Origin: Candidatus Wolfebacteria bacterium
GTDB lineage: Bacteria; Patescibacteriota; Minisyncoccia; UBA6257; UBA9933
Length of the DNA stretch: 54,982 nucleotides
Assembly (NCBI GenBank): GCA_024654025.1
Contig: JANLIR010000004.1
Coordinates: forward strand, 1 to 54,982
Reading direction: 5' to 3'
Part shown: positions 2-51,102 of the stretch, piece after piece
Position numbering within the stretch: the first letter of the stretch is position 1
How the letters are laid out: every line of letters begins with the position of its first letter
Translations under genes and position numbers: made by a program
The notes under the pieces: model-generated
Told to the model about the DNA's origin: nothing
Seen by the model: only the letters and a program-made list of their open reading frames with translations
The model's database searches: none

Positions 2-1084
2 ACAGGAAAAGTCGGACACATCTTCAGACCGAAAATAATTGACTCAGCTGGAACAGAGGTCTGGGGAGATTTGCACATTGAAAACGGAATACTCTCGGTA
101 ACTATTCCGCAAAACTTTTTAGATAAAGCGGTTTATCCAGTAATAGTTGACCCGACTTTTGGATACACAACCATAGGAGCGACAGGCGGGGCAACTCCAG
201 CAAACTATTTAGTAGGAACACGGGCGAACCCCACCGTCACCGCAACCGGAACAGTGGACAGTATTTCGATTTACGGTTCTGGGAGTGGAGTGAATTTTAA
301 AGGAACCGTGTTGAATACATCAATGAACATAATAACTAACGGAGTAAGTCCCTCTGGTTCTTTTGGGGCGGGCGCTGGCTGGGTTTCGGCTAATTACACG
401 ACAAAACCGACTGTTAGCACGGGGACTGATTATTATTCAGGAGCCGTTGTTAATGGAACTGCCACTATTTATTACGACACAGGGGGTGGGGCAACGGATG
501 CCTTTTATGACGCAACTAACAACTTCACAACCCCTACAAATCCAACGGACGCTTTAGATAACCCAGTTTTACTTTCTGTTTATTTTACTTATACAGCTTC
601 GACTACGGCAACAGTTTCCTGTTCTGCTCCCACTTCAACTTCCTTTGGCGCTTTAACTAACGCGAGTGTTTTTACTTCAAGTCCCAACGCTTCCACGACA
701 ATGTCCTGCAGTGGCACTTCGGCTGGCTGTACGCTCTATATGAAAGACGCGGGCAGTGGCTCTAATCCCGGATTGTGGAAAAGCGCTTCACCGACTTATC
801 TCATTGTTTCTGCTGACGCAACTTTATCTGCTGGCGCTGATGGTTATGGTATTCAGGCAACGACCACAGCTGCCGGCTCTGGCGGTACCTTAAGTTTCAA
901 TTCCAAATATAATAAAACCGGCAATGATGTTGGCGGATTGACCCTTACCAATACGATTTTGGCTTCATCAACTGTTGATGTTACAAACCGCGAAGCGGTG
1001 GTAACTCATAAAGCCGCTGTTTCAAGCAATACTTTGTCCGGAACATACAGCGATACGATAACTTACAGTTGCCTAGTAAATTAG
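2..1084 (+). CDS. Secreted surface protein, 5' end cut by the window edge; C-terminal ~165-aa Cys-bracketed beta-rich module
   Basis: The frame is open from nt 2 (no stop upstream of the TTG at 71 used by the ORF track), so the gene starts outside the window. The protein is Thr/Ser/Ala/Gly/Asn-rich. The segment ATVSCSAPTSTSFGAL...GTYSDTITYSC aligns colinearly with the C-terminal two thirds of ORF 1069-1830. Confidence 0.6.
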   Translation, partial: TGKVGHIFRPKIIDSAGTEVWGDLHIENGILSVTIPQNFLDKAVYPVIVDPTFGYTTIGATGGATPANYLVGTRANPTVTATGTVDSISIYGSGSGVNFKGTVLNTSMNIITNGVSPSGSFGAGAGWVSANYTTKPTVSTGTDYYSGAVVNGTATIYYDTGGGATDAFYDATNNFTTPTNPTDALDNPVLLSVYFTYTASTTATVSCSAPTSTSFGALTNASVFTSSPNASTTMSCSGTSAGCTLYMKDAGSGSNPGLWKSASPTYLIVSADATLSAGADGYGIQATTTAAGSGGTLSFNSKYNKTGNDVGGLTLTNTILASSTVDVTNREAVVTHKAAVSSNTLSGTYSDTITYSCLVN

Positions 1085-1830
1085 GGGATAGAGGTTATCC
1101 ACAATTGCAGTACAATTTAATATGCTATAATAAAATTATAAATTATGATAAAAATTATTTTACGTTTTACGAGAGAGAGAGAGAGAGAGAGTACTTACCG
1201 GCCATTGGTTTAACACTCGTTGCGTTATTAATAATCGGCGGGTGGTTTTGGTCGTCTTTAGAAATCTTAGTGGCGCCTCCTGAATACGCCAGCGCCGCAA
1301 CAACTTCCGCGGTAACAGTTAGCGCTTCGGTAACGGCTACTATTAGTTGTTCTACTAACGCTACTTCAACGGCTTTCGGCGCTTTAACCAGCGCGTCTAT
1401 TTCAACCGCTTCTCCAAACGCTTCTACGACAATATCCTGCGCGAACTCCGCGCCTGGCTGCACGCTTTATGTAAAAGACGCGGGTAATGCCACCAATGGC
1501 GGTTTAGCTACTACCAGCCCGGCCTATCTTATTCCTTCGCCTAATGCCGCTTTTACCGCGACCGCAACTTTAGTTGCCGCTACTGAGGGTTATGGTATTC
1601 AGGCGGCGACGACTACGGCTGGAAGCGGAGCCATTTTTACTGTTGGCGCTCGTTATCTTCAAACCGGAGATACAGTCGGCGGTTTAGTTGTGACTAACAC
1701 AACTCTTGTTTCGACTAGCGCCACGTCTTCGGGTCGCGAAGTATTGATCACTCATAAAGCCGCTATTTCCGCTTCAACACCAGCCGGCAGCTATAGTGAC
1801 ACCATCACTTACGAGTGCACAGCAAACTAA
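1069..1830 (+). CDS. Secreted or membrane-anchored surface protein, paralog of the C-terminal module of the upstream gene; start codon unresolved
   Basis: It has a hydrophobic N-terminal segment LPAIGLTLVALLIIGGWFW followed by ASA. The module ATISCSTNATSTAFGAL...GSYSDTITYECTAN is colinear with the upstream protein. The frame contains only TTG starts (1069, 1105); the only nearby ATG (1145) is out of frame across the GA repeat. Confidence 0.6.
   Translation: MPSKLGDRGYPQLQYNLICYNKIINYDKNYFTFYEREREREYLPAIGLTLVALLIIGGWFWSSLEILVAPPEYASAATTSAVTVSASVTATISCSTNATSTAFGALTSASISTASPNASTTISCANSAPGCTLYVKDAGNATNGGLATTSPAYLIPSPNAAFTATATLVAATEGYGIQAATTTAGSGAIFTVGARYLQTGDTVGGLVVTNTTLVSTSATSSGREVLITHKAAISASTPAGSYSDTITYECTAN
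1123..1131 (+). promoter_or_regulatory. Extended -10 promoter element TGCTATAAT
   Basis: Exact TGnTATAAT lies 13 nt upstream of the ATG at 1145. Several other genes in the window show the same promoter style. Confidence 0.4.
1171..1191. repeat. (GA)10G dinucleotide microsatellite
   Basis: Read directly: gagagagagagagagagagag. It lies between the ATG at 1145 (frame 2) and the signal-peptide-like hydrophobic segment of ORF 1069-1830 (frame 1). Confidence 0.95.
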
Positions 1831-1884: not shown

Positions 1885-2805
1885 ATGCGCCGACTTTTCT
1901 TGCCCTATCTTTTTTCGTTTTTAATCGTCGCGTTTGTAGTTATCGCGCCGGCGTCTGTTTTGGCAGTGACGATTGGACCGGCAAAAATTGAGTACCGCGC
2001 CGATCCGGGAACCGTAATTAAAGATACGCTCGTTCTTGTCAATGACAGCAACGCAAAACAAACTTTATATTCATCTTTTGAAAAATTTACCGAAGTAAAT
2101 GGCGAAAAGAAGTTTTTACTTGGCGAGCCAACCGAGTTGGCAAACTGGTTTAATCTTCCCAAGAGCGTAACGCTTGAGCCGACCGGACAAAAAAGCATTC
2201 CTTTCACCGTTGAGATACCGAAAAACGCGCCTCCGGGCGGACATTTTGCCGTAATCTGGTGGGGGACGGCGCCACCAGAAGGGTCAAAACAAGTATCTAT
2301 CGTTACTCGCGCCGGAATTTTGGTCTATCTTCGGATTTCCGGCGAAGTTAACGAGTCCGCCGAGATTTTGAAATTCGCTACTGAAGGAGAAAAATTTTTC
2401 TGGAGCAAAATGCCGGAAAATTTTGCCGTTCTTTTTAGAAACAGCGGCAATACTTATCTCAAGCCACAAGGTGAAATTTTAATAAAAAACATATTTGGGG
2501 GAAAAGTCGCAACTTTCGGCATAAATGAAGTTAGTTTAATTTTTCTGCCGGATACCGAAAATAATTTGAGGATTGCCAAAAAATTTGAGAAAGCGCCGAT
2601 TGCCTTTGGTTTTTATAAAGCGGAACTTACTCTTCGTTGGGGAGAGAAACCGGAATCAATCCAGAAAAATATTTGGTTCTTTGTGTTTCCGTGGAAGCAG
2701 GTGTTGGGCGGCATTATTATTTTAGCCATTTTATTCTTCGGTCTTAAAAAAGGAATTAAAAAATACAATCAGTGGATAGTTTCTAAATACACTCCTAAAC
2801 AGTAG
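1885..2805 (+). CDS. Cell-surface protein with signal peptide, DUF916/DUF3324-like Ig-fold body and C-terminal TM anchor
   Basis: Signal peptide ends ...APASVLA. The body (PGGHFAVIWWG, RAGILVYLRISGE) resembles the WxL-cluster-associated DUF916/DUF3324 proteins of Firmicutes. C-terminal TM segment VLGGIIILAILFFGL is followed by a basic tail. The family call is from memory of the motifs. Confidence 0.45.
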   Translation: MRRLFLPYLFSFLIVAFVVIAPASVLAVTIGPAKIEYRADPGTVIKDTLVLVNDSNAKQTLYSSFEKFTEVNGEKKFLLGEPTELANWFNLPKSVTLEPTGQKSIPFTVEIPKNAPPGGHFAVIWWGTAPPEGSKQVSIVTRAGILVYLRISGEVNESAEILKFATEGEKFFWSKMPENFAVLFRNSGNTYLKPQGEILIKNIFGGKVATFGINEVSLIFLPDTENNLRIAKKFEKAPIAFGFYKAELTLRWGEKPESIQKNIWFFVFPWKQVLGGIIILAILFFGLKKGIKKYNQWIVSKYTPKQ

Positions 2806-2821
2806 ATTAGGCCACTAATTT

Positions 2822-2896
2822 ACACTAATATTAAACTAATGAACACTAAAAGAATTTTATTAGTGTGTATTGGTTTTATATTGGTGTTTTTTAGCG
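2822..2896 (+). repeat. 75-nt signal-peptide module, copy 1 (paired with 4824-4898)
   Basis: Hand alignment gives 64/75 identical positions with 4824-4898. It spans the promoter-proximal region and signal-peptide codons of 2839-3864. Confidence 0.8.
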
Positions 2897-3864
2897 CGTT
2901 AAAAGCATCTGCCGACTCGGTCAATATTACCGCCTCGGTTAACTCGGTTTGCGGGAACGGAATTTTGGAAAACGGAGAGCAGTGTGACGGGACGGCCTTT
3001 GGTGGCGCATCATGCGTATCGCAGGGCTTTAGTGGAGGCACGCTTTCATGCGCTGCTTCGTGCACTTTTAATACTTCTCAATGCACTTCCGCGCCGCCGC
3101 CCTCTGGCGGAGGAGGTGGCGGAGGCGGCGGTGGATATGTCGCTCCAGTTACCAGCGCTATTTTTAACGGCAGGGCGTATCCCAAAAGCACGGTAACGCT
3201 TCTCAAGGATGCCCAGATTGCCGCCACAACCATCGCTGGCGCGGACGCTAATTTTCAGATAAGTGTTTCCGGTCTTTCTGGCGGTAACTATATCTTCTCG
3301 GTTTATAGCGAAGACAGTAAGGGTAATCGGTCGTCTCTCTTGACTTTTCCGGTGAGCGTAACTTCAGGCGCCACTACAAAAGTGAGTGGTATTTTTATTG
3401 CGCCAACAATTACGGTTGACAAAAGCGAAGTCAAAAGAGGAGATGATATTGCGATTTTTGGCCAGTCAGTTCCAAATAGCGAAATAACTATTTCTGTTAA
3501 TTCTGACGAGGAATTTTTTAATAAAATCAAGGCAGATGCCGGTGGCGTGTATTTGTATAATTTTGACACCTCGCCGCTTGAAATAGCGCAACATTTTACC
3601 AAATCAAAAACCGCGCTAAACGGCGAGATTAGTTCTTTTAGTAAAACCATAAGTTTTGCCGTCGGCACTAAAAATGTCGCCAAAGTCACGCAAGAGTTTT
3701 TGAAAGGAGATTTGAACAACGACGGCCGAGTAAATCTCGTTGATTTTTCTATTGTTGCGTATTGGTATAAACGACCTTCGCCGCCAGCTTCTGCTGATTT
3801 GAATGGCGATGGCAAAACTGACCTTGTTGATTTTAGTATTATGGCGTTTTATTGGACAGGGTAG
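2839..3864 (+). CDS. Secreted protein: signal peptide, Cys-rich repeat, Gly10 linker, Ig-like domains, C-terminal dockerin
   Basis: Signal peptide ends ...ALKASA. CGNGILENGEQCDG...C matches the Myxococcus-type Cys-rich repeat. The C-terminus GDLNNDGRVNLVDFSIVAYWY...ADLNGDGKTDLVDFSIMAFYW is a duplicated Ca-binding dockerin type I signature. Confidence 0.75.
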   Translation: MNTKRILLVCIGFILVFFSALKASADSVNITASVNSVCGNGILENGEQCDGTAFGGASCVSQGFSGGTLSCAASCTFNTSQCTSAPPPSGGGGGGGGGGYVAPVTSAIFNGRAYPKSTVTLLKDAQIAATTIAGADANFQISVSGLSGGNYIFSVYSEDSKGNRSSLLTFPVSVTSGATTKVSGIFIAPTITVDKSEVKRGDDIAIFGQSVPNSEITISVNSDEEFFNKIKADAGGVYLYNFDTSPLEIAQHFTKSKTALNGEISSFSKTISFAVGTKNVAKVTQEFLKGDLNNDGRVNLVDFSIVAYWYKRPSPPASADLNGDGKTDLVDFSIMAFYWTG

Positions 3865-3914
3865 CCATATTTCGCTTTGCGAAAATGAAATTTTCAATTT
3901 TTAAATAAATTACA

Positions 3915-4820
3915 ATGACCAAAAGCCAAAAATCAAAAATTGCCATACCGCTGATAATCTTTATGTTATTTTTTGCAATACCCGTTTTTGCGGCGGAAAT
4001 TTATTTTGATACAAAAACCCAGGAGATAAAAGTAAATCAATTGTTTGAAGTCGTCATTTTTATCAATACTGACGAAGAAAGTATAAATGCCGTTGAGGGC
4101 AAAATTGTATTTCCGGAGAAACTTCTTAAATTAAAAGAAATAAGAGACGGCAACTCAATTATTAATTTTTGGATTGAACGGCCCAGGGCCAAAAATGGAG
4201 AAATTCTATTTTCCGGGATTATTCCCGGCGGTTATATGGATAAAAAAGGCCTGATTTTTTCAATAATTTTTCAAGCAATACAAGAAGGCCGGGGTTCAAT
4301 AGAAATTCGCGATATAAAAGCGCTGCTCAATGATGGGAAGGGAACAAAAGCGGACACAACAATTTCTAATTCACAATTTGCAATCTCGGGGCAGGAGCCG
4401 GCATCTCGACCCGCAGTATTTGAAAAAAAGGATATTGATATGCCGGAAACATTTGAACCAACGGTGGCGAGCGATCCGGCAATATTTGACGGCAAATACT
4501 TTTTGGTGTTTGCGACACAGGATAAGGCGTCGGGTATTGATTTTTATGAGGCAAAAGAATCCAGGCAAGGGCTTTTTTCTATATTCAAGAGTTGGATGCC
4601 GGTTGAAAGTCCTTTTGTTCTGAACGATCAGGAGTTACGGAGCTTCATTTTTGTCAAAGCGATTGATAAAGCCGGAAATGAAAGAATTGCCGTGGTTGAG
4701 CCGAGATATCCGATAAAGTGGTATTATGAGGCGTGGTGGATTTGGATTATAATAATATTAGCAATAATTTTTACCCTCATTTTTATTAAAAGGAATTTAT
4801 GGAACAAAATAATCCATTAA
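3915..4820 (+). CDS. Cohesin-domain protein with C-terminal TM anchor
   Basis: A signal peptide is followed by AEIYFDTKTQEIKVNQLFEVVIFINTDEESINAVEGKIVFPEKLLKL, which is cohesin-like in pattern. There is a KAIDKAGN beta-sandwich motif and a C-terminal TM segment WWIWIIIILAIIFTLIFI. Confidence 0.6.
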   Translation: MTKSQKSKIAIPLIIFMLFFAIPVFAAEIYFDTKTQEIKVNQLFEVVIFINTDEESINAVEGKIVFPEKLLKLKEIRDGNSIINFWIERPRAKNGEILFSGIIPGGYMDKKGLIFSIIFQAIQEGRGSIEIRDIKALLNDGKGTKADTTISNSQFAISGQEPASRPAVFEKKDIDMPETFEPTVASDPAIFDGKYFLVFATQDKASGIDFYEAKESRQGLFSIFKSWMPVESPFVLNDQELRSFIFVKAIDKAGNERIAVVEPRYPIKWYYEAWWIWIIIILAIIFTLIFIKRNLWNKIIH

Positions 4821-6574
4821 TTAACACTAATATTAGATTAAATTACACTAAAACAATTTTATTAGTGTTTATTAGTTTTTTATTAGTGTTTTTTGGCGGG
4901 GTAAGCGCGGCTTCGGCGGCGACTTTATATTTTTCTCCTTCTTCGGGATCTTATACTGTCGGTCAAAACTTTTCCGTGTCAGTTTATGTTTCAAGCGCTG
5001 ACCAGGCGATGAATGCCGCTTCCGGCGTGATTTCATTTCCGCAAGACAAGCTTGAGGTAACCTCTTTTTCTAAAAGCAATTCTATCTTTACTCTCTGGGT
5101 GCAAGAACCGGCGTTTTCTAATGACGTTGGCACGGTTAATCTTGAAGGCATTGTGCTTAATCCAGGATTTACCGGCGCGACCGGAAAAATTATTACCGTA
5201 AACTTTAAAGCAAAAGCAGCAGGTAACGCGCTTCTAAATTTTTCTTCCGGTTCAGTATTAGCCAATGACGGCAAAGGAACAAATATTCTTACAAGTTTGG
5301 GAAATGCGCAATTTAACTTGGGCTATGCTGGTCCATCGGTTCCCGAAACCACTACTCCATCAATTACGCTGGGCACGCCGCCTGCTCCGCAAATTTCTTC
5401 TCCCACGCATCCCGATCCTAATAAATGGTATGCCAACAACAATGCAAAATTTATGTGGTCAGTGCCGTCTGACGCTGTTGCCACAGGGCTTTTGTATGAC
5501 AAATATCCCAATAGCCAGCCGAGAGTGGTTTATGAACCGGCAATCTCGGAAAAAGAAATCAGTGACTTGAAAGACGGAGTTTATTATTTTCATGTTCAAT
5601 TCAAGAACAACAAAGGATGGGGCGCGATTTCGCATTTTCGGTTTCAGATTGACACCCAGCCGCCGGAACCCTTTGACATAAAATTTATTGACGGCGAAAA
5701 AAGTAGTAATCCCCAGCCAACCGCAGTATTTGATACCACTGACTCGCTTTCAGGAATTGAATATTACAAAATTAAAATCGGCGAAGGAGATTTCTTTGTT
5801 ATAGCGCCGGAAGTTGTAATAAAAAGTAATCCTTATACTTTACCTCTGCAGATGCCGGGAAAACGCAGTATTTTAGTTCAGGCCTACGATAAAGCCGGCA
5901 ATTATACCGTTAATAGCGCTGAATTTGTTATTAAGCCGATTCTGGTCCCGACAATCACTGATTATACTAATAAGATAACCAAAGGAGACCCTCTGATAAT
6001 ACGAGGTAAGGGCGTTTCAAATTCAACTATAACAATATTTTTAAAATCCGATGAGAACAATATTTTAAGTCAAAGTGTAGAAAGCGATAAAGACGGATTT
6101 TTCAATTTAATCTGGCAAGGTAAAGTTGAAAACGGAGTTTACGCTTTATGGGCAGAAGCCACGGATGAGCGCGGCGCCCACAGCGAAAAATCGACGACCC
6201 ACACTCTCATTGTCAAAAAAGGGCCAATAGAGCAATTTTTCGCAACGCTCCTTCCGTACTTGGCGATTATTATTTTAATATTGGCAATAATTCTTCTGAT
6301 AATTTATCTAATTATGAATTTTTGGCGAAAATACGTGGAATTGCATAAAAGAATCAAAAAAGAATCGCAAGAGCCGGAAGCCGCTATTTCCGAGTATTTC
6401 GGCGTTCTTTTGAAAAATATCCGTTCTTATCTTCGATTGTTGGAAGGAGCGAAAACAAGAAAAGAATTATTAGAGCGTAAAAAAGAAATAATTAACCAGA
6501 TAAAAAACGACTTGGACAGCATAGAGGTTCTTATTCTTAAAGAAATCAAAGACCTTGAAGATAGAGGCAATTAA
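4799..6574 (+). CDS. Cohesin-domain surface protein with Ig/FN3-like repeats, TM anchor and cytoplasmic coiled-coil tail
   Basis: The cohesin-like N-terminus is LYFSPSSGSYTVGQNFSVSVYVSSADQAMNAASGVISFPQDKLEV...ITVNFKAKAAGNALLNF. It also has a YDKAGN motif, TM segment LLPYLAIIILILAIILLIIYLI and a Lys/Glu-rich tail. The ATG is preceded by AAAGGAA and overlaps the upstream gene by 22 nt. Confidence 0.65.
   Translation: MEQNNPLINTNIRLNYTKTILLVFISFLLVFFGGVSAASAATLYFSPSSGSYTVGQNFSVSVYVSSADQAMNAASGVISFPQDKLEVTSFSKSNSIFTLWVQEPAFSNDVGTVNLEGIVLNPGFTGATGKIITVNFKAKAAGNALLNFSSGSVLANDGKGTNILTSLGNAQFNLGYAGPSVPETTTPSITLGTPPAPQISSPTHPDPNKWYANNNAKFMWSVPSDAVATGLLYDKYPNSQPRVVYEPAISEKEISDLKDGVYYFHVQFKNNKGWGAISHFRFQIDTQPPEPFDIKFIDGEKSSNPQPTAVFDTTDSLSGIEYYKIKIGEGDFFVIAPEVVIKSNPYTLPLQMPGKRSILVQAYDKAGNYTVNSAEFVIKPILVPTITDYTNKITKGDPLIIRGKGVSNSTITIFLKSDENNILSQSVESDKDGFFNLIWQGKVENGVYALWAEATDERGAHSEKSTTHTLIVKKGPIEQFFATLLPYLAIIILILAIILLIIYLIMNFWRKYVELHKRIKKESQEPEAAISEYFGVLLKNIRSYLRLLEGAKTRKELLERKKEIINQIKNDLDSIEVLILKEIKDLEDRGN
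4824..4898 (+). repeat. 75-nt signal-peptide module, copy 2
   Basis: See 2822-2896. The position equivalent to the ATG of copy 1 reads AAT here, so this gene starts 13 codons further upstream. Confidence 0.8.
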
Positions 6575-35095: not shown

Positions 35096-35272
35096 CCCGC
35101 CTGTCTATCCATAGCACTTGGCGAAGGTGGGATGCTGGAGCTTATTTAAGGATTTAATTATATAACAATTTGCGTTTAAGATATATGTTTTTAATAGGAT
35201 TTTATGCTTTGACAGTTATCCACACTCTAATTGACTTCTAATACCGGAGGTTATATATTTAATATATAAACG

Positions 35273-50331: not shown

Positions 50332-51102
50332 ATGAAACGCAATTTCTGGGTTGTTCTATTTATCGCGTTAGCGGTTTTATTGGTCGCGGATTCGATTTTT
50401 GCGGAATCCGCGAAGCCCGGTCGTCGCTACCTCAAAATCGGCGGGGCGCCGATGAATGAAAATCGGCAGTTGGAGCCCGGCGAGGAATTTATGCCGCCAG
50501 CCTCCAAAGATTTTTGGGCAATTACCAATTACCGGAGTAAGATTACCGGTAAAGTTGGAACTGCCCGGGGTTGGGTTCCGGCTGGCACTGTATTCGCTAC
50601 TGTGGTTACGGATGATCCAACGCTTCGAAAAGCGATATGGATCAAGGACTGTGGAAACGACGTCTTGAATCCGGAAAACAAAGCAATTTATTTTCGGGTT
50701 CAAGCAGACGTTCCGGCTGGTAGGCAGATTGCTGGAAGCGAATCATCAAGTGAGGGTCGCGCGTTTATTCCTACCACGCCGGTTGTTGCAAGAGCCTCCA
50801 CGCAACCAACAACGGAAAAGAAATGTTTCGGCAAAGGCACTTGGATGACTGGCGCTGGCACCCTTCTTACTGGCGTTGGTGTCGGAGTAGGCCACTGGGG
50901 TTATCTCTTGGCTGTACCGGGGTTGGCGCTAACGTATTTTGGAGCCAAGGATGAAGCCAGTGACCCAGCTTGTAAAGCGGTCGCCGCGGTAGTCGGCGGC
51001 ATCGGAGGGTATGCCGCGGGTCATACCTATAAAGTTTACGGCGAGGGAGGAGAACCAAACTCGTCGCTTGGCCCGTCGCCCCCCCCGCCGGGTAACAACT
51101 GA
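50332..51102 (+). CDS. Secreted protein with Gly-rich C-terminal membrane segments
   Basis: A strong SD (GGGAGGG), a signal peptide ending ...SIFAES, and C-terminal GxxxG-rich hydrophobic stretches (TGAGTLLTGVGVGVGHWGYLLAVPGLAL, AVAAVVGGIGGYAAG). Confidence 0.55.
   Translation: MKRNFWVVLFIALAVLLVADSIFAESAKPGRRYLKIGGAPMNENRQLEPGEEFMPPASKDFWAITNYRSKITGKVGTARGWVPAGTVFATVVTDDPTLRKAIWIKDCGNDVLNPENKAIYFRVQADVPAGRQIAGSESSSEGRAFIPTTPVVARASTQPTTEKKCFGKGTWMTGAGTLLTGVGVGVGHWGYLLAVPGLALTYFGAKDEASDPACKAVAAVVGGIGGYAAGHTYKVYGEGGEPNSSLGPSPPPPGNN

Follow-up and report, generated by a model that had tools for sequence, protein, structure and literature searches.

A (GA)n tract in the 5' coding region of a pilin-like surface gene as a probable contingency locus of a groundwater Candidatus Wolfebacteria bacterium

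The DNA analyzed here, referred to as the window, is a stretch of 54,982 bases from a Candidatus Wolfebacteria bacterium of the Candidate Phyla Radiation (CPR; contig JANLIR010000004.1). Close to its beginning lies a small gene for a predicted surface protein, whose 5' end contains a (GA)10 tract (Table 1). The tract begins 24 nt 3' of the ATG at 1145 and is the sole dinucleotide repeat of at least five units in the whole window. A 13-base GA pattern, with at most one mismatch, is expected in 0.05 copies according to dinucleotide-preserving shuffles and was found at 1171-1191 only, so the tract is not an accident of composition. The frame opened by ATG 1145 ends shortly past the repeat; the gene body is in another frame, that of a long open reading frame (ORF) with no ATG or GTG ahead of the hydrophobic segment. 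The first-pass annotation of this DNA had described a -10 box, ATG 1145, the (GA)10 tract and the stop codon TAA at 1211-1213, all of which were found in place by direct reading; its statement that only TTG 1069 and TTG 1105 precede the signal-peptide-like segment in the main frame is borne out by the ORF list.

Table 1. Positions of the features at the locus (window coordinates unless a run or locus is named) and repeat lengths in other alleles and related loci
Feature	Position, run or locus	Strand	Details
Upstream gene, runs off the window start	2..1084	+	Larger secreted protein
Long ORF containing the gene body	1069..1830	+	253 aa; TTG at 1069 and 1105; ORF list
TTATCCACA motif	1095..1103	+	Identical to the DnaA-box consensus; 22 nt upstream of the -10 box
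TTG, start in the public NCBI annotation	1105..1107	+	241-aa product P0121; upstream of the -10 box, within the promoter region
Extended -10 element TGCTATAAT	1123..1131	+	Direct reading; conserved in orthologous loci L052, L038, L111
ATG start codon of the surface-protein gene	1145..1147	+	(GA)6 alleles translate from this ATG; M(I/K)KIILR conserved in orthologues
Truncated frame, (GA)10 allele	1145..1213	+	22 aa, MIKIILRFTRERERESTYRPLV; TAA at 1211-1213; ORF list
(GA)10G tract	1171-1191	+	(GA)10 at 1171-1190 plus G1191; direct reading
Gene body, out of frame with ATG 1145 here	1192..1830	+	Stop at 1828-1830
13-bp hairpin after the stop codon	1844..1872	+	-16.9 kcal/mol, z = -3.95 (fold)
Downstream gene	1885..2805	+	Secreted, C-terminal membrane anchor; syntenic in L030, L043, L111, L112
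(GA)6, in frame (ON)	Runs X2, X3, X4, X5, X9, X10; contigs L030, L031, L112		L030, L031: Hainich well H41 assemblies; L112: ERR3858120
(GA)10, OFF	Window; X1; X6		X1: 1153-nt contig spanning 743-1895, depth 11; X6: minor 39-nt contig
(GA)5, OFF, other alternative frame	X6		Major contig, 430 nt, depth 6.6
Tract of at least 8.5 units	X7		Contig ends within the tract
In-frame tracts, sister species	L052; L038/P0125; L111/P0126		(GA)7; (GA)13; (GA)4
Tract at the same spot, Candidatus Jorgensenbacteria	L001, L032-L034		(GA)4; 72% identity
Tract at the same spot	L021		(GA)12; 47% identity
Tract at the same spot	L113/L114		(AG)9
Tract at the same spot, GC-richer lineage	L115/L116		(AG)7
Tracts of at least 6 units among 110 loci	L021, L038, L052, L030/L031, L043, L024		12, 13, 7, 6, 12 and (AG)14
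G8 runs	L068/L069 1493-1500; L080 312-319; L109 283-290
L043 upstream ORF	1316-1384		(GA)12 at 1355-1378
L024 upstream ORF	~700-845		(AG)14 at 734-761

The gene was rebuilt in silico with 3-14 GA units and translated from ATG 1145. Full-length proteins of 223-229 aa result from 3, 6, 9 or 12 units, whereas translation stops after 18-24 codons with 4, 7, 10 or 13 units and after 42-48 codons with 5, 8, 11 or 14. The earlier frame arithmetic, by which the loss of one GA unit or the gain of two restores the fusion, is thus right. In the alleles of 5, 8 and 11 units, the body frame contains no possible alternative start, and the (GA)5 class is therefore a clean null. When in frame, the tract codes for (Arg-Glu)n in the n-region that precedes the membrane helix.

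The public runs containing the window sequence are groundwater metagenomes and were examined as Logan contigs (17 runs), which were compared with the window to read the number of GA units. The resulting census of alleles is a sample, among the matches listed (600 metagenome stretches); alleles retrieved via protein identity are biased to the full-length (ON) state and were excluded from the evidence on the ON/OFF ratio. Within this one species, one ON length and two OFF lengths were found, one for each alternative frame, with two lengths in run X6. These 5-, 6- and 10-unit alleles have at least 99% flanking identity, and only 6 is in frame. Between the ON contig L112 and the window there are 5 substitutions over 1337 nt, besides the 8-nt gap at the tract, and the protein body is 100% identical. 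Similarly, in a single study, the 10-unit allele of X1 and the 6-unit allele of X3 differ at 2 SNP positions over ~800 nt. The first-pass annotation had predicted length polymorphism for a switch, and near-identical populations indeed carry 5, 6 and 10 units, not 10 throughout. Run X7 contains a 351-nt contig matching window positions 1155-1191; other abundant loci in the samples of X7 and X16 carry (GA)n-GTA(C/A) with different flanks.

The start codon of the gene was examined through its relatives. A search with the hypothetical in-frame protein retrieved P0001, a protein of 225 aa that is exactly the (GA)6 form from the ATG (MIKIILRFTREREYLPAIG...), and the called proteins P0122-P0124 are likewise the (GA)6 form read from ATG 1145. 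The same search returned 461 further relatives, nearly all of 205-230 aa. Orthologues with 60-75% identity open with M-K-K-I-I-L-R, followed by a few residues, the Arg-Glu run and then the helix IGLTLVALLIIGGWFW (..IGLT). In each fetched locus of the family, the mature domain was placed by tblastn and the frame was walked upstream from there; among 78 distinct small family genes (genuine cases), the window alone is missing an in-frame ATG before the helix. The frame equivalent to the N-extension from TTG 1105 is closed by stops in L052, and in the (GA)6 alleles (L030) this extension is not joined to the gene body; TTG 1105 is probably not a real start. The conserved ATG and the non-conserved TTG extension argue that ATG 1145 is the start of the gene and that the window carries a frameshifted allele. 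Since the NCBI call begins at TTG 1105, the frameshift is masked in the annotation. ATG 1145 had been noted from the outset as giving, once fused to the main frame, the more typical signal peptide, and the (GA)6 proteins, the conserved MKKIILR and the size of the family proteins (205-230 aa, against 241-253 aa from the TTG codons) speak for it as the start.

Sequences upstream of the gene are also conserved. The extended -10 proposed by the first-pass annotation is read directly and kept in L052, L038 and L111, although a -35-dependent sigma-70 scan made no call at 1123-1131, where there is no -35 match. A promoter block, TTGCAGTACAAT(T/C)TAATATGCTATAAT, is conserved in L052, L038, L111, L030 and L112. 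The motif TTATCCACA is present in exact form in ~30 of 71 distinct family upstream regions, and 45 exact plus-strand copies occur in 431 kb of loci, against ~1.6 expected; this recurrence indicates that it is a conserved cis element of the gene family. The DnaA-box consensus GTTATCCACA lies ~22 nt upstream of the family -10 box in L002, L004, L010, L012, L021, L024, L026, L035, L041, L042 and others, and has a second copy in the window at 35216-35224. Its role could be that of a regulator site or of an unusual -35-region element.

In the sister species, the proteins P0125 and P0126 are identical except for the number of Arg-Glu pairs, and at the DNA level they are separated by 8 substitutions over 1388 nt and a gap of 18 nt. 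Further strains of the sister group have about 5 and 11 units, with compensating changes in the flanks, and more distant relatives carry GA or AG tracts at the same spot (Table 1). Across 376 kb from 110 related loci, all dinucleotide repeats of at least 6 units are GA tracts at the 5' end of family genes. The flanks of the tract are conserved as TTTT(A)C-(GA)n-GTA. In a distant clade, the n-region instead contains a G8 run (G6 in L009), which codes for Arg/Lys-Gly-Gly and is in frame in 4/4 of the G8 alleles seen. In the orthologues P0006 and P0010-P0012, the tracts are decayed and interrupted (EKEI, EKES, EKEK). Absence of the repeat in orthologues had been named beforehand as an argument against a switch; the repeat is kept at the same position, with other lengths.

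In run X16, the contig of L021 breaks exactly at the (GA)12 tract, with low-depth side contigs. An assembly graph with k = 31 shows such a pattern when several lengths are present together; the side contigs are not resolvable into lengths, because high-depth GA-repeat k-mers from other loci confuse the region. Near L021 3045-3077, the GA-repeat 31-mers of X16 have a depth of 85-95, against 18 for the locus. Together with the other GA loci noted above, this depth suggests that many more family genes with GA tracts exist in co-occurring CPR populations.

We consider it probable that the GA repeat, placed within the 5' coding part of the pilin-like surface gene of this Jorgensenbacteria-like groundwater CPR bacterium, functions as a slipped-strand contingency locus. 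Transcription would start a few bases past the extended -10 (1123-1131) and translation at ATG 1145. The tract would be read as charge-neutral, hydrophilic (Arg-Glu)n in a short cytoplasmic n-region before the membrane-spanning or signal helix, and this n-region would tolerate any in-frame (Arg-Glu)n length. Known contingency repeats of surface-protein genes sit at the corresponding place. Replication slippage would add or remove GA units and thereby change the frame. A number of units divisible by three would give the full protein of 223-229 aa; translation of other lengths would end after 18-48 codons, so that two of every three lengths would stop it early. The window, which carries (GA)10, would therefore be in the OFF state, and populations of the same species in other samples would be ON with (GA)6 or OFF with (GA)5.

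At the level of sequence, the hallmarks of a contingency locus are present: a perfect tract that can slip, dependence of the frame on its length, and natural length polymorphism with both ON and OFF alleles. We infer from these features that replication slippage causes the length changes. Such changes would be frequent and reversible within a lineage, and OFF alleles would make no functional protein. Switching would be adaptive, for example by varying a structure used for host attachment or in phage recognition.

Several observations weigh against this reading. Heterogeneity within populations is seen indirectly, in the two alleles of X6 and the contig break of X16, and Logan contigs drop rare variants; contig depths are also low (3-18x). 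The alleles are separated by steps of 1, 4 and 5 units, and lengths of 7-9 units were not seen. In addition, the alleles lie on slightly different haplotypes, and recombination between strains is therefore a possible cause of the differences, instead of recurrent slippage. The body frame of the (GA)10 class stays open back to TTG 1105 and TTG 1069, and a protein could be made in this class from read-through transcripts, as there is no terminator after the upstream gene. A search for RNA runs with the window sequence found none and so supplied no expression evidence. Finally, every consensus allele found outside the window species is in frame, a picture that purifying selection on an unstable, non-adaptive linker would also give.

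This last point is what the first rival explanation, which we regard as unlikely, would predict from purifying selection alone. According to it, the tract is unstable but does not act as a switch: (Arg-Glu)n would be a tolerated linker, and (GA)10 and (GA)5 would be ordinary loss-of-function frameshifts in a decaying or dispensable gene. The decayed, interrupted tracts of several orthologues (P0006, P0010-P0012) fit this explanation, and no read-level switching was observed in the assembled contigs. However, perfect tracts of 10-14 units have been kept or regenerated in at least 6 separate lineages, and another clade has a second type of repeat (G8) at the same spot. For a neutral linker, this is unexpected in genomes of 40% GC without other such repeats. 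The OFF gene body is 100% intact, with no secondary damage, and the ON frame and both OFF frames co-occur in one study, two of them in one run.

A second rival, in our view very unlikely, holds that the tract picks the start codon: in the (GA)10 allele, a protein would be made from TTG 1105 or TTG 1069 on read-through transcripts, as an N-terminal isoform of 241-253 aa. It is favored by the body frame, which is open from 1012 and contains both TTG codons, by the lack of a hairpin between the upstream stop (1084) and the promoter on direct reading, and by the PGAP-style annotation, which took TTG 1105 (P0121). However, this TTG is placed 5' of the -10 box of the gene itself, overlapping the conserved promoter block, and lacks a preceding Shine-Dalgarno sequence. 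Its extension (QYNLICYNKIINYDKNYFTFY) is composed like a translated AT-rich spacer; the stops in the equivalent frame of L052 have been described above, and none of the 78 family members uses such an extension. In the (GA)5 class there is no start at all, so that at least the (GA)5 allele would be null even under this explanation.

Recoding, by which a ribosomal frameshift or slippage of RNA polymerase on the tract would restore the frame in the (GA)10 allele, seems to us highly improbable. In its favor, the GA tract is repetitive and placed directly before the frame junction. Against it, known transcriptional slippage needs long homopolymeric A/T runs, and known programmed frameshift sites consist of specific slippery heptamers plus stimulators. 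No direct evidence of recoding was found, no structure is predicted downstream (fold z = +0.44), with no Rfam match, and the in-frame alleles that dominate elsewhere would be needless if recoding were efficient. Least credible of all is an assembly or sequencing error in a tract that is truly in frame: dinucleotide repeats are error-prone in some library preparations and the contig comes from a metagenome assembly, but the assembler of Logan independently recovered (GA)10 in X1 (depth 11, 743-1895) and X6, a difference of 8 nt is untypical of Illumina error, and a 21-nt tract, being shorter than k = 31, is spanned by single k-mers.

The interpretation as a slipped-strand contingency locus can be compared with known systems. 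In Helicobacter pylori, hopZ, sabA and babB carry CT repeats in the 5' region that codes for the signal peptide. The same is true of oipA/hopH (PMC10564699). By analogy, these CT tracts are functionally closest to the window locus, and Neisseria opa and the Campylobacter poly-G tracts are also close. As in the Hop genes, whose CT tract reads as GA on the opposite strand, a dinucleotide repeat separates the ATG from the hydrophobic export segment, the number of units sets the frame and the ON/OFF state, and length alleles exist among closely related strains. The Hop proteins of this diderm pathogen are beta-barrel porins; the protein described here has a single helix and a pilin-like beta-sandwich, with no kinship to them in sequence or fold. 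H. pylori switching has been measured experimentally, whereas that of the window locus is predicted from sequence.

The vlhA genes of Mycoplasma gallisepticum have GAA repeats upstream of the gene, outside the coding region, which act on transcription. As at the window locus, members of a surface-protein family carry a purine-rich repeat at their 5' end, and the bacterium is host-dependent, with a small genome and a reduced wall. The window tract, in contrast, is part of the coding region and works through the frame. Neisseria opa genes have CTCTT pentamer repeats in the region coding for the signal peptide, and Campylobacter jejuni has poly-G tracts in genes for surface structures (PMC8437040, PMC11868660). 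In both systems, repeat slippage leads to localized hypermutation within the 5' coding part of surface genes from paralogous families, as proposed for the window locus, and the G8 runs of the distant family clade resemble the Campylobacter poly-G type. They differ in repeat unit, organisms and ecology; moreover, their switching rates have been measured and the selective agents (immunity, phage) are known.

For CPR/Patescibacteria, no report of repeat-mediated ON/OFF switching was found in full-text literature searches. The nearest case is a Gracilibacterium surface gene with PTD repeats, a hypervariable CPR locus that was noticed through assembly problems (PMC6851277). Unlike the GA tract of the window, the 9-nt repeats of that gene are in frame, vary synonymously and do not switch the frame (PMC6851277).

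Two related loci, L043 and L024, have a different arrangement, in which the GA tract lies in a small upstream ORF followed by a terminator-like hairpin with a U run, the sequence AGGTCG and then the family gene. In both, one of the three frames meets a stop codon immediately behind the tract (GAGTAA, GACTAA), and the remaining two run through the hairpin. The z-scores of these hairpins in folds of the two leaders are not significant (-0.94, -0.43). L043 has a 1.2-kb insertion just before the upstream ORF. The tract in these loci may be a repeat-set transcription attenuator or the remnant of a displaced gene start, and its position upstream of the gene recalls that of the vlhA repeat. If true, a repeat-set attenuator would be an undescribed way to couple a contingency repeat to gene expression.

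More generally, it could be proposed, tentatively and with considerable doubt, that repeat switching by GA or G8 tracts, with the TTATCCACA promoter, extends family-wide across a CPR pilin-like module that includes the L043/L024 attenuator. CPR bacteria are very small, have mostly not been cultured and are believed to live attached to other microbes. Contingency loci are textbook features of host-adapted pathogens such as Neisseria, Haemophilus, Helicobacter, Campylobacter and the mycoplasmas. If the family-wide proposal held, CPR episymbionts would hedge by stochastic switching of their surface, setting host attachment against exposure to phage or host defenses. At the window locus, the mechanism would be a known one, in a phylum-level and ecological setting that is new. 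With regard to this setting, the host-associated context invoked by the first-pass annotation fits loosely: the organism is a groundwater CPR bacterium and a probable episymbiont, not an animal-associated one.

Given the ON and OFF alleles in groundwater and the repeat-bearing CPR relatives, the conserved gene cluster would be marked as an environment-facing determinant under fluctuating selection, and the state of the switch could be tracked in existing metagenomic reads. Because automated annotation hid the frameshift behind an upstream TTG (P0121), repeat switches in metagenome-assembled genomes are probably under-counted. Similar repeat-disrupted genes in such genomes may be routinely mis-started.

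With regard to the encoded protein, no Pfam match at E <= 0.1 and no NCBIfam match were obtained. The ON form was modeled with AlphaFold from 94 homologues (mean pLDDT 87), and the model contains a disordered n-region with the Arg-Glu run, one long helix (residues 15-40) and an all-beta domain (strands 63-224). The membrane helix is encoded at ~1195-1251 and is followed by a linker with ASA/ATT and then by the beta-sandwich. Four Cys and a C-terminal motif, ..G.Y.DTITYEC.., are conserved in the family alignment, and the mature protein includes the segment ATTSAVTVSASVTATISCSTNATSTAFGALTSASISTASPNASTTISCANSAPGCTLYVK. The predicted N-terminal helix and beta-sandwich, along with neighbors that have dockerin and Ig domains, suggest a surface location for the product.

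The top Foldseek matches in the PDB are all pilus subunits (CfaB, CsuA/B, Fim, Pap, Caf1), at a probability of up to 0.99, but they are weak (E 0.01-0.5, TM 0.3-0.6); against PDB sequences, the best profile match is the fimbrial protein 7lhi_F, at E = 0.09. Because the structural and profile matches are weak, the modeled protein is called pilin-like and is not assigned to the chaperone-usher pilin family. Structurally, the predicted beta-sandwich is closest to CsuA/B (7zl4, 6fqa, 6fm5) and CfaB (4y2l), with Foldseek probabilities of 0.96-0.99; for these weak matches, E is about 0.01, TM 0.3-0.55 and identity 15-17%. As in chaperone-usher pilins, there is a C-terminal strand, ..G.Y.DT.TY.., and the helix is followed by a donor-strand-like segment, AVTVSASVTATIS. 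In contrast to such pilins, no chaperone or usher gene was seen nearby. The segment AVTVSASVTATIS (residues ~49-62 of the ON protein, 1297-1340) consists of conserved alternating hydrophobic residues and is unstructured in the model; by analogy with donor strands, polymerization by strand exchange is a possibility. CPR cells lack the outer membrane that the chaperone-usher pathway requires. No PapD-like chaperone or usher domains were found among the neighbors at 1885-6574 (Pfam/NCBIfam), and neither database places the protein among the chaperone-usher pilin/spore-coat-U (CsuA/B-like) sequences.

The last ~170 aa of the upstream gene are a paralogous copy of the body of the surface gene, with 55% identity (tblastn match at 584-1081), and the same order, a large paralogue and then the small gene, is found in most related loci. 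The downstream gene has a sub-threshold match to WxLIP_PGBD, the peptidoglycan-binding domain of WxL-interacting proteins (PF06030; E = 0.0099, with 16.3 bits where the cutoff is 27.3). The surface gene has no WxL match in Pfam, and the order of genes is reminiscent of the WxL-type clusters of Firmicutes. Membership in the WxL and chaperone-usher families was considered and not accepted, as there is no qualifying Pfam/NCBIfam match for the protein. Further neighbors in the same conserved cluster encode dockerin/Big_6 and Big_13 proteins. The rest of the window contains CPR housekeeping genes: GatA, MetRS, IscS/NifU, PFOR, NiFe hydrogenase, DnaK/DnaJ, DnaX, Obg and MnmA.

The hairpin that follows the surface gene is, as folded, a terminator-like end of a monocistronic unit. 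A riboswitch or leader RNA was dropped as an explanation, since Rfam gave no family on 900-2000. Between the -10 box and the ATG, a stretch of 7 nt is tandemly duplicated in the window lineage (AAATTAT x2; 1134-1147, compared with L052 1494-1503). The sister species has the ATG only 6 nt after TATAAT, which suggests that its mRNA is leaderless or nearly so. The downstream gene (ATG 1885) likewise has a TAATAT box 7 nt upstream. Family genes without the GA tract (L002, L005, L008-L012, L027, L068, L080) carry the conserved motif (A/G)AGGTCG 20-35 nt before the ATG, which does not occur in the window; it is Shine-Dalgarno-like, yet too distant from the ATG for a normal ribosome-binding site.

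The sole G/C homopolymer of at least 8 bases in the window is a C8 run at 51079-51086. It codes for Pro-Pro-Pro-Pro, seven codons short of the stop of a secreted glycine-rich ORF of 256 aa (50332-51102), and a frameshift there would alter the last few residues only.

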